A DNA stretch of 52,805 nt, the filler included, from Theionarchaea archaeon (lineage in GTDB: Archaea; Methanobacteriota_B; Thermococci; Methanofastidiosales; SZ-28-30), in the NCBI GenBank assembly GCA_018992565.1. It is 3 parts of 3 records of this genome, joined end to end, with 100 filler letters (N's around TTAATTAATTAA, not from the genome) between each part and the next. Parts side by side here need not be neighbours in the genome. Positions count along the whole stretch, not along the records: positions 35,681 to 52,805 come from JACVGW010000059.1; 2 more parts are not named here. One strand, given 5' to 3'. How positions within the stretch are numbered: position 1 is the stretch's first letter; each line of letters starts with the position of its first letter. This document shows, one piece after another, positions 42,001 through 45,000 of this stretch. Position numbers: made by a program.

Positions 42001-45000
42001 AGTATATTCTGCTATATTTTCTCTATCCAAAGGATATGCCCTTGATCTGGATGATAGAATCGGTACAAAAGAAAAACCAACGTGGTCTTCCCAGTTCCAC
42101 TGGCGCCTACAACTGCTGTTACCTTCCCTGGCGACATGTCAAGGGATACTCCTCTCAATACAGGTGCATTCCCCTTATCGTACATAAACCACACATCCTG
42201 AAACCCTATTTCAGGCGCCCATTCCAGCTTGAGCTCTTTCCCTCTGCCCAATTCCTCTGTTCTTTTCAGCAGAGAAAATATCCTTTCACCGGTTGGGACT
42301 GACTGCTGCATAGCGTCATTCCATTCAGCAAGATTTTGAATGGGAAATTGAATAGGAGTAGTACTGAATAGGTTCCAGCAGTCAGGCTGTCAATAAAATT
42401 CCTTATGAGAAAAGGAAGGAGTGCTGATAACCCAATGGTCAAGAGGTTTGCCAAGATTATGTAAACCTGAGGGCGGATATAGCTCAGACTTCTGTTCCAG
42501 ATTTCCTTGAAAATAGCATTTCTGTACACGACCCACCTCCCTATTACCTACAAGCCACAAATCCTGAAGAGAGTCACTCTCATGGGAACTTCTCAAATAG
42601 TTTGTATAAAGACTTAATGGTTTCTTATCACGCATGTTCTAATTTTGTAAAATAAAAAGACTACTCACATTCAAATATATCCACAAAAACCTATCTGAAG
42701 AAGATCTCGTGTATTGAAGTGATGAAAAATATGGGCTTGGCTCCTTGCTTTGAGCCACTCTGAGTCCTGAGTATTCGATTTCCCCGCCAGTTGGTTCCTG
42801 CCACCATCCATTATGTTTCATATAGCACTGTGCGTGGCACGAATGAAGCATTCTGGTGAAGCCAGCTGGGAAAAGAATGACTCCTCCGGAGACTTGAGAT
42901 CAGTATCAGCATATCTATCACGACTCTAGGTATCCCTTCCATGTCTCGAAATCGTTTCCACATATACTACTCATATCGGAACGACCGGGACAAACCTTTA
43001 AGAGAAGTATGTGGAAGTACATGTATGAACCAGTCAAATGGGTCATCTCTTAACCTGCCTATCACAGTAAGAAGTGCAGTAACAAGATCAGCATATCTGA
43101 AAATCAATTTGACTACAACCTTCAAATCGTGGGGAGCCCTGTTTTTGTGTGCTGTAATGATCATTGCCACGTATCTTCTCCGTGCCATAGATGCCTCTTC
43201 TTGTAGCCTTATCGTTATCTGGAGCATAGCTTTGGTTTATTTACTGATTGTACTTGTGACTGCCGTGTACCTTGCTTATACGTCCAAGAATTCCTCGTGC
43301 TTGCTTCCGACTCTGTTCACATTTGACGATGAAAGCTTCTCCACGGAAACAGAACTTATGCAGAGTAAGGCAAAGTGGAGCAGTATTATTGCTTTCAAAG
43401 TCGTTGCAGGGTATTATCTCCTCTTCATTTCAGCAACATCATTCATTGCCGTCTCCCAGAAAGCTCTTTCAGTTGAGAATGCTGCAGCATTTGAAAAGCT
43501 GCTCCATGATAAGGTTAAGCATTGATCCTTCTCAGGCTTTCTAGAGGGAGTATAGTCGTCAGGCGAACTTGCACCTCTTCGAGATGGCAGATGGAAAAGA
43601 CATATATTCTATCAGTCACTGTGGACCCTATGAATGTCATTAACGTGCTCAAGGAGCTTGTCGCAATTGAAAGTCACACTGATGGGAGACCTATCATCTC
43701 TCACGTTACAGGAATACTTGTAGATCTGGGCGCCCATGTCACCCGCTATGGCCCAGAACAGAAGCCTGCTATTCTGGCTGAATTCGGTACTGGAGGTCCT
43801 GTCTTCTCTGGACACCTTGATACCGTTGTCATGGGTGAGTGGGACTATGAGCAGGGACAGATTATCAATGGTAATCTCTATGGGAGAGGGAGTACTGACA
43901 TGAAATCAGGATGCGCTGCCATGATTGCAGCGGCCGAGACACTCAAAGACGATGTCCCGTTCTGCATAGCCTTCACAACAGATGAAGAAATAGGAATGAA
44001 AGGGGCTGAAGACCTGGCCAGAACAGAGACTTTAAGAAAAGCCCCCATTGTCCTGGTAGGAGAGCCAACAGGCCTGAAAGTAGGAACTGGAGAAAAAGGA
44101 GTTCTCTGGTTGGAAGGCGTCGTTAAAGGGAAACCCTCCCACGGGAGTATGCCCTGGATGGGTGACAATGCAATACTCAAGATGGCGCAGCACCTCACAT
44201 CTGTGACCCCTTACACAGAAAAAGAAGGGATGACTATCAACCTTGGACTCATAGAAGGTGGTTCACAGATTAATGTCACTGCAGACACGTGTACAGTCCA
44301 ATTTGATGTCAGGTACCCTCCCACCATGAGAAAGGAGGATGTCGTACAAGCCATGGAAACCCTGACAGGACTCCCGCTAACAGTGAAGTACGATCTTCCC
44401 CCCATATCTATTGATAGTAACAGAAAAGACATTCAACTCCTCCTGGAGCTCGCACCAGGAGCATGCACCTGCTACTTTGCCACTGAAGCTGTGAAATTCT
44501 CGCCTCCTGCCCCTGTTGTTATTCTTGGCCCGGGAGAGCAGGAAATGGCCCACCAAAAAAATGAATTCGTGAACATTGACCAGGTCAAAGAGGCGGAAAA
44601 AATCTACACAGAATACTTCAAAAGAATTTCTTCGTAATCAACAGAAAAAAAGGCCAGATTTCTGGGGAAGAGGAGGGAAAATCCCTCCTTCCCTTTGGGT
44701 GATCCCTTATGCCTCCTTACTCGACCCCGCATTTCTCTCCTACCTCGAAAGGTATTAGAATGGGATAACCCCGGAGCGTGTTTCATGCTAAAAGCAGACT
44801 CATAGGAGGAAAGAATATGGCGGAAGGGGAAATCCCATCTAATCATTATTGCTAATCAATACTATATAAAGCTTTCGGTTATACACGTTAGTTAAAGTTA
44901 ATGATTAGTCAGAAAAGCTTATAAGGATATAGGAGTGTTATATCTAGGGGTGTTCCTTATGCCTCCTACCTAAGGAAAATCCAAATCATGTGGTTCGTCT

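Follow-up and report, generated by a model that had tools for sequence, protein, structure and literature searches.

A predicted anti-RBS small RNA for S-layer genes and its divergent partner RNA in a Theionarchaea archaeon

An intergenic locus in the genome of an uncultured Theionarchaea archaeon from sediment carries the signals of two divergent small RNAs, RNA1 and RNA2, and RNA1 is very probably a real sRNA directed against ribosome-binding sites (an anti-RBS sRNA). With less assurance, we favour a combined reading in which RNA1 would be a trans-acting anti-RBS repressor and also a sponge of RNA2; a full two-state switch of the cell envelope is put forward tentatively. The initial annotation of the locus had described an sRNA masking S-layer RBSs. 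That reading is supported by the conservation of the pairing core and was incomplete, since a second domain of RNA1 is predicted to pair with an sRNA matching a second S-layer class. What is new is that RNA1 appears as one half of a divergent pair whose other half has an S-layer class of its own. The material in hand is sequence, complementarity, conservation, and promoter and terminator-like signals. From it we infer that both RNAs are transcribed and pair in vivo, that they repress and sponge, and which way and on what trigger a switch would go.

The window, meaning the whole stretch of DNA analysed (52,805 nt), comprises three contigs of one genome (C146, C150 and C151), and the RNA pair sits on C151, flanked by an M20 peptidase gene and an amidinotransferase-fold gene that converge on it (Table 1). 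Other neighbours are found on the M20 peptidase side in G003 and in locus L185, and on the amidinotransferase-fold side the neighbour differs in G001 and G003. The genome under study is labelled G000, G001 is a close relative, G002 is 84% complete, and G003 belongs to another genus; the last three are probably the genomes that had been called G032, G033 and G031, as matched by their descriptions. Gene identifiers of the form n2308 are calls from a simple model (2,669 genes in G000) and not an annotation. Shine-Dalgarno (SD) use is widespread in G000, with AGGAGG at most 18 nt from 243 of the 2,669 called genes. An Rfam release 15 scan of the window gave no match at the gathering score (best E 0.15, 18 bits vs 58.6), in line with the earlier search, and RNA1 is a member of no Rfam family. 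A scan for bacterial promoters and terminators stayed at chance level. In four RNA runs, one 158-nt contig was placed at 45124-45280, in the flanking gene, and none over RNA1 or RNA2, which is uninformative because the organism was barely present there (a share of 0.05 at best).

Table 1. Features of the RNA1/RNA2 locus, with positions counted along the window.
Feature	Position	Strand	Basis or remark
M20 peptidase gene (flank)	43591..44637	+	Pfam Peptidase_M20; convergent with RNA1; outside the RNA system
RNA1, predicted small RNA, ~195 nt	44645..44842	-	start from TATA distance, end from hairpin and U-run
RNA1 terminator-like hairpin and U-run	44645..44693	-	sequence/fold; absent from the list of a simple terminator scan
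RNA1 site b (predicted sponge site)	44702..44717	-	complements RNA2 5' strand and loop 1; 13 nt perfect, 16 bp with G:U
RNA1 site a, SD-like	44736..44746	-	complement of RNA2 loop 1 (9 nt) and of the G000:C6 sRNA loop (11 nt)
RNA1 5' domain: closing stem (arms 44838-44826, 44772-44760), seed in loop	44760..44838	-	inverted repeat; z = -3.12
RNA1 loop element AAACACG, 7 nt	44777..44783	-	in 6/9 RNA1 loci and the G001 paralogue
RNA1 anti-RBS core, 15 nt: complement of SD, 7-nt spacer and AUG	44805..44819	-	invariant in 9 loci
RNA1 promoter: BRE/TATA (44878-44863), then operator-like inverted repeat TATTG-N5-CAATA (44861-44847)	44843..44878	-	
RNA2 promoter: conserved upstream element, BRE and TATA	44892..44926	+	sequence
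RNA2, predicted small RNA, ~110 nt: closing stem, two loops, U-run	44945..45055	+	z = -4.15
RNA2 loop 1, anti-SD CCUCCUACC	44962..44970	+	invariant in alignment A2; in 8/8 metagenome loci
RNA2 loop 2 UGGUUCGUCUGGU	44991..45003	+	invariant in alignments A2 and A4
Amidinotransferase-fold gene (flank)	45136..46008	-	Pfam ADI/DDAH; convergent with RNA2; outside the RNA system

The minus-strand BRE/TATA promoter of the initial annotation was recovered, and a hairpin with a U-run ends the predicted transcript. This intergenic layout, with its own promoter and terminator-like end, is common to RNA1 and the other loci. When the start regions of the 2,669 G000 calls were compared with RNA1, four matched over 17 nt and the next best over 12 nt, which reproduces with independent gene calls the gap reported earlier; the 17-nt pairing with each target falls inside 44803-44820. 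The 15-nt core occurs five times in G000, as had been said of the seed word: at three S-layer starts, at one peroxiredoxin start and at the RNA1 locus, where it lies on the plus strand, so that the minus-strand RNA is its complement. The target identities held, with Pfam S_layer_C in the class-A S-layer genes (two on C113, one on C154) and AhpC-TSA/1-cysPrx_C in the peroxiredoxin on C119. All three S-layer genes carry the core at the start, as claimed, and they are not independent witnesses. Two of the three paralogues are 94.6% identical in protein, all three end at contig ends, and because the genes are near-identical and their shared sequence begins at the RBS, the three sites represent one event.

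The exact 15-mer is present in four copies in G001, four in G002 and three in G003, with none for the reversed control. The G001 copies lie at two class-A S-layer starts (pairing over 17 and 19 nt), in the orthologous RNA1 and in a second promoter-led RNA, and those of G002 at two class-A S-layer starts, an amino-acid permease and a DUF4212-like protein; those of G003 precede two secreted proteins and mark an RNA1 at G003:C38 that is unalignable by BLAST. These positions agree with earlier statements that the word precedes genes of relatives and that the close relative carries the core in another RNA led by a promoter; this second RNA has a TATA box and lacks the operator described below. The RNA region of G001 is 93% identical to that of G000 over 457 nt (95% had been given). 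The RNA had also been reported missing from two relatives, which holds for G002, where neither RNA1 nor RNA2 was found in the 84% complete genome, which carries four perfect target sites, and fails for G003.

Metagenomes were scanned with a 20-nt piece of RNA2 that contained no RNA1 sequence. In all eight loci retrieved (five sequence types) the divergent promoter was present, followed after 22-24 nt by an exact copy of the core. In the RNA1 alignment of nine loci, from which the duplicates L187 and L188 were left out, 15 of the 15 core columns were invariant as against 13 of the 183 elsewhere, and identity to G000 outside the core was 0.92 in G001, 0.57-0.62 in four loci and 0.25-0.37 in three poorly alignable ones. 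The spacer matching the core is retained before class-A S-layer genes in all three genomes of the genus; a class-A start was not found in G003. An exact core across two genera, unrelated flanks, a fixed place behind the promoter and a spacer kept in 3/3 genomes together support a trans-acting anti-RBS sRNA.

The predicted target set extends somewhat beyond class A. A fifth start, that of n2308 (a 1,379-aa surface protein with carboxypeptidase-regulatory repeats), pairs over 18 nt with G:U, and the site is identical in the G001 orthologue and has one extra base in the G002 orthologue. G:U-compatible variants of the site also precede surface-protein genes in G000, G001 and G003; in G003, the surface proteins targeted may owe their sites to duplication of a leader. 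For full-length RNA1, predicted net binding came to between -21 and -28 kcal/mol with the leaders of the five targets, as compared with -7.5 for class B. The 15-mer also lies ahead of five unrelated genes across the four genomes, for an expectation of 0.03-0.08 per genome; the chance of an unrelated gene sharing the given spacer was estimated at 0.03-0.04 from position frequencies and, by counting collisions (8 in 208 spacers), at about 0.08. Because of this 3-8% expectation, the peroxiredoxin match is weak when taken alone. Its 17-nt complementarity stands, and as a conserved target it was rejected: the G001 gene is truncated with an altered site, and no orthologue was found with the G000 query in G002 or G003. 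The site may have arisen by chance. The amino-acid permease site is perfect in G002 only, the G000 and G001 orthologues having an A-run, and its leader is predicted to pair with as good an energy, from which it follows that A-rich spacers can drift into the motif.

RNA1 might be a general translation damper whose CU-rich loop acts on many strong SD sites, the S-layer match reflecting a common strong RBS; the core does contain an anti-SD, the S-layer starts are mixed among other genes when ranked by seed energy (3, 5 and 23 of 2,618), and related loops of another family match a generic SD (G018). We regard this as very unlikely on two grounds: every locus keeps the 7-nt spacer complement unchanged, whereas just 4 of the 208 G000 starts with GGAGG and a 7-nt spacing have that spacer, and the matches in register show a gap, with five genes at no mismatch, three at one and 44 at two.

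The 5' domains of eight loci gave folding z-scores of -1.45 to -2.99, with at least 9 of the 15 seed nucleotides free in 6/8. Whole RNA1 of G003 reached z -3.62 with the seed in an open loop, and its 5' stem is unrelated in sequence to that of G000. The consensus 5' stem of six loci showed little covariation (2 of 18 pairs with two-sided change). In full-length folds the seed was mostly paired in cis in 7/9 loci (2-6 of 15 nt free), often with downstream SD-like words, and site a, whose core is conserved across six genus-type loci, is able to pair with the seed in this way. Opening the seed in G000 RNA1 would cost 5.7 kcal/mol, far below the energy calculated for the target leaders. Release of the seed by RNA2 binding was predicted in 3/9 loci only and was dropped as a general mechanism.

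The opposite strand was the more stable in 7/8 of the 5' domains, so the RNA1 strand was assigned from promoter and terminator and not from folding. The same observation, together with a plus strand that reads as a perfect SD-spacer-ATG, speaks for an alternative in which the motif would act as DNA or through the plus strand, be it as the RBS of a tiny peptide, a decoy for an RBS-binding protein or a binding site for protein shared with S-layer genes. Such a role appears highly improbable. The frame that it opens has 8-25 codons and no conserved sequence in 10 loci, where a frame of just 11-12 codons had been noted before; the promoter faces the opposite way in all loci, and at target genes the motif is always on the coding strand, in register with the start codon. 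A further worry had been that RNA1 is a cis-acting leader, its seed pairing with the RBS of a downstream 42-codon ORF and thereby controlling it, and the minimum-energy fold of full-length G000 RNA1 indeed forms this pairing. Across four loci, however, the frame has 42, 31 (frameshifted, in G001), 7 and 34 codons and none was found in six others, the ORF overlaps the convergent gene, and the G003 seed sits in an open loop. We give the cis-leader reading almost no credence and regard it as largely refuted. No conserved coding frame was seen in the RNA1 loci on either strand examined; with the plus-strand and 42-codon frames unconserved, the peptide and cis-leader readings are removed, and the trans-acting reading of RNA1 is retained below.

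For the RNA1 promoter, a self-trained 36-nt matrix found 15 sites in G000 with scores of 55.1-36.8 (next 19.4), the RNA1 site at the top; the motif is a TATA box followed by TATTG-N5-CAATA and is found ahead of RNA1 in G001, G003 and 8/8 metagenome loci as well. In G000 it also leads three short units (C6, C8 and C146), both target genes of RNA2 loop 2, an operon with helix-turn-helix (HTH) and S-layer-domain genes, a HerA-domain protein, several secreted or small proteins, and a putative histone-like frame (labelled from sequence). The HTH gene has weak Pfam matches only. Among the best matches in G001-G003, the motif precedes the same genes. At class-B S-layer genes its position differs: upstream of the BRE in G000 and G002, downstream of the TATA box in G003. 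Operators immediately downstream of a TATA box are usually repressor sites, and those immediately upstream of the BRE activator sites.

Elsewhere in the order, family f4 has the operator motif at the head of one S-layer class in four genomes and of a hairpin sRNA family. The hairpin loop matches the RBS of the other S-layer class over 9 nt in G009 and 10/11 in G006; no specific match was seen in G018 (a generic SD match), and a target was not found in G012 or G021. Covariation of seed and S-layer gene in f4 is suggestive only, and an RNA1-like match to S-layer leaders was not established in families f2 and f3.

RNA2 begins about 100 nt from RNA1, and its promoter is conserved in G001 and six genus-type metagenome loci. 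Homologues are present in G001, in G003 (two copies) and in the eight metagenome loci, with stems that vary and two loops that do not. A search of 34 genomes of the order by BLAST and with a covariance model built from four sequences recovered RNA2 in G000, G001 and G003 only; the model gave four further weak matches (E 0.02-0.03), and its consensus structure was poor.

Three of the 2,669 G000 leaders complement loop 1 over at least 10 nt. They belong to the class-B S-layer gene n2667, to the gene of an 880-aa protein and to an FtsZ gene, whose site is shared by G002 but not by the second FtsZ paralogue. The 12-nt core of loop 2 has 10 matches in the four genomes, with none for the reversed control. 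Four are the RNA2 genes themselves, one falls in the 3' part of G003 RNA1, and the remaining five are divided between the 5' regions of two envelope genes under the operator. One of these genes encodes an S_layer_C-domain protein (core in G000, G001 and G002, with diverged flanks) and the other an 820-aa secreted protein (core in G000 and G002, a G:U-compatible change in G001). Class-B leaders carry both RNA2 sites in G000 and G002 (11 + 10 nt) and shorter ones in two G003 genes (7-8 + 9-10 nt); a class-B 5' end was not found in G001. Both sites (9 + 8 nt) also precede n1673, the paralogue of n2308. Paralogue pairs are divided between RNA1 and RNA2 for S-layer classes A and B and for two giant surface proteins. 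A genome-wide two-site test for RNA2 alone yielded two genes, equalled in 40/500 shuffles (not significant), and predicted binding of RNA2 to the class-B leader was weak (-5.6).

Between RNA1 and RNA2, the 13-nt perfect complement in G000, which extends to 16 bp, was reached by 0/1000 shuffles, and a helix of 13-17 bp is predicted in 9/9 loci, with 0-9 of 300 shuffles reaching it per locus. Its place on RNA2 moves from the 5' strand and loop 1 (genus type) to loop 2 (G003) or to both in tandem (L185/L186). A matched change in both RNAs occurs at L185/L186, and at three other loci an A-to-G change keeps a G:U pair in the helix. A further operator-driven sRNA, the third, is predicted at G000:C6, and RNA1 complements its loop over 11 nt.

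It could be that RNA1 is a real anti-RBS sRNA and that its match to RNA2 is a by-product of local duplication or of shared SD/anti-SD words, with no switch. Such words are abundant in both RNAs, the stretch shared in G000 is a direct repeat 250 nt apart (44705-44717 / 44955-44967), the two-site test fell short of significance, and in G003 the predicted net binding of RNA1 to RNA2 is only -4.9. We hold this unlikely. The pairing recurs at every one of the nine loci while its site shifts between loops and covaries, G003 and L185 pair through loop 2, which is not SD-like, and the second seed RNA of G001, which has no partner, shows a complement of just 6 nt (equalled by 941/1000 shuffles).

In the preferred reading, that of RNA1 as repressor and sponge, the 5' stem-loop would offer a 15-17-nt seed to the mRNAs of class-A S-layer and a few other surface proteins, and by covering SD, spacer and start codon it would block initiation. 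The 3' part of RNA1 would bind the divergent RNA2 and neutralise it. RNA2, for its part, would repress through loops that cover the leaders of a class-B S-layer paralogue, other operator-led envelope genes and one FtsZ paralogue. With the operator-type promoter of RNA1 on, class A would thus be shut and class B freed.

A wider interpretation, possible and for now doubtful, is a developmental switch that would swap the whole envelope in Theionarchaea and take a looser form in other families of the order. One programme would consist of operator-controlled alternative S-layer-domain proteins, a histone, an HTH protein, a HerA-type ATPase and several sRNAs. The divergent sRNAs, each antagonising the other, might then form a toggle that silences one paralogue or the other among S-layer proteins (class A or class B), giant surface proteins and FtsZ. 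Such a toggle with an archaeal sRNA sponge could conceivably mark a particular state of the cell, for instance one of rest or differentiation.

To our knowledge, targets have been established for very few archaeal sRNAs. In bacteria, sRNAs of the MicF type shut off abundant envelope proteins (porins) post-transcriptionally, a trait that the RNA1 proposal shares with them, with no homology. Bacillus anthracis exchanges its S-layer with growth phase, from Sap to EA1, under proteins acting at transcription, and we know of no involvement of sRNAs there; it resembles the present proposal in replacing one S-layer paralogue by another and differs in its transcriptional control, again with no homology.

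Closer parallels come from Methanosarcina mazei. According to the review PMC4152357, sRNA162 uses an unstructured stretch to mask the start codon and RBS of an mRNA encoded in trans, and a second domain has another target. RNA1 would likewise be an archaeal anti-RBS sRNA with a second domain for another target. In that review, sRNA162 differs in targeting a transcription regulator and in its second activity, which is exerted in cis as an antisense to an mRNA rather than by capture of another sRNA. In sequence, the two were compared through Rfam only, with no match. Loop 2 of sRNA154 masks the glnA2 RBS and sRNA41 masks several RBSs (review PMC5867862); both are conserved intergenic anti-RBS sRNAs like RNA1, and the two-loop anatomy of RNA2 resembles that of sRNA154. 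Unlike the present case, their targets there belong to nitrogen and carbon metabolism and not to the envelope, and no divergent antagonistic pair is described; the text of that review mentions neither S-layer nor sponge.

The bacterial sponges AgvB, 3'ETS-leuZ, RbsZ and ChiZ pair with regulatory sRNAs and inactivate them (review PMC8383071), and the 3' part of RNA1 is similarly predicted to pair with a regulatory sRNA. Going by the same review, bacterial sponges are mostly linked to Hfq or ProQ, whereas the archaeal RNA1 would be an mRNA repressor and at once the sponge of its divergent neighbour. Opposing sRNAs are reported from Clostridioides difficile sporulation (PMC10267692). Among open-access papers, at the level of titles and the opening lines of abstracts, no archaeal S-layer sRNA or archaeal sRNA-sRNA sponge was found.

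In these cells the S-layer serves as the principal wall, and the perfect conserved seed makes the anti-RBS claim directly testable. If the switch is true, it would amount to a compact natural RNA toggle, and it would mean that an uncultured lineage changes its cell coat under regulation and perhaps has a second cell state.

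Three further short units in the genome under study (G000) are predicted to lie under an operator-type promoter like that of RNA1, the sRNA predicted to pair with class-A S-layer gene starts; the operator is the inverted repeat TATTG-N5-CAATA near the TATA box. The anti-SD loop of the C6 unit is complementary over 11 nt to the SD-like site a of RNA1, and also to class-B-type leaders. Both this unit and the one at window 10365-10505 are conserved in the congeneric genomes G001 and G002; no clear target was found for the latter. The C8 unit ending in a U-run has a seed resembling that of RNA1, is identical in its G001 counterpart, and finds a 14-nt complement at the start of n0576, an 880-aa gene.

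Features related to RNA1, its operator or other promoter-linked motifs (w, window).
Feature	Location	Strand	Basis
Second predicted RNA with the 15-nt core of RNA1	G001:C1:245430-245540 (L023)		core match
Invariant 7-nt element AAACACG, RNA1 loop	w 44777-44783; L184, L189-L191, L023		sequence comparison
14-codon upstream frame, one-mismatch seed site	G000:C105:15400-15470; L044, L040	-	
Predicted ~90-nt operator-driven unit, anti-SD loop	G000:C6:9625-9715; L118, L004	+	promoter motif, sequence
Predicted ~30-nt operator-driven unit, U-run at end	G000:C8:29285-29315; L124	+	promoter motif, sequence
Short unit, RNA1-like operator-type promoter	w 10365-10505	+	promoter motif
Tandem two-class S-layer paralogues	L136 (G009:C1:107001-121000); L175 (G005)		
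TATA-adjoining repeated motif, ~155-aa paralogues	G000:C94:4305, C95:1886, C1:4632		
Two similar purine-rich non-coding units, strong upstream TATA boxes	G000:C68:68535, C140:10217	both -	
Short promoter-led units, CU-rich anti-SD stretches	G000:C8:12186, C121:11579	-, +	

Three ~155-aa paralogues, presumably small heat-shock proteins, share a repeated motif that directly follows their TATA boxes and is distinct from the operator; positions 44892-44901 of the window, between the promoters of RNA1 and RNA2, resemble it. The target search for the CU-rich units gave no outstanding candidate. A single RNA-library contig (window 45124-45280, depth 3) matched the amidinotransferase-fold gene exactly at its 3' end, and may derive from DNA carry-over.

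Across the order, S-layer paralogues of two classes, with the operator or without it, stand in tandem. Family f4 has a predicted family of operator-driven hairpin sRNAs with a fixed stem and a variable anti-SD loop (L210, L132, L182, L212, L213); G018 carries a tandem pair of them.

The C105 frame with its seed site is conserved in G001 and G002 and overlaps the beginning of a long frame, presumably that of a ribonucleotide reductase. AAACACG is carried by the genus-type RNA1 loci and by the G001 paralogue of RNA1; no partner was found for it. The inverted repeat after the TATA box of the L023 RNA differs from that of RNA1, and no complement to RNA2, the divergent predicted sRNA, was found in it; from these sequence features, L023 is read as a reuse of the RNA1 seed under another regulator.
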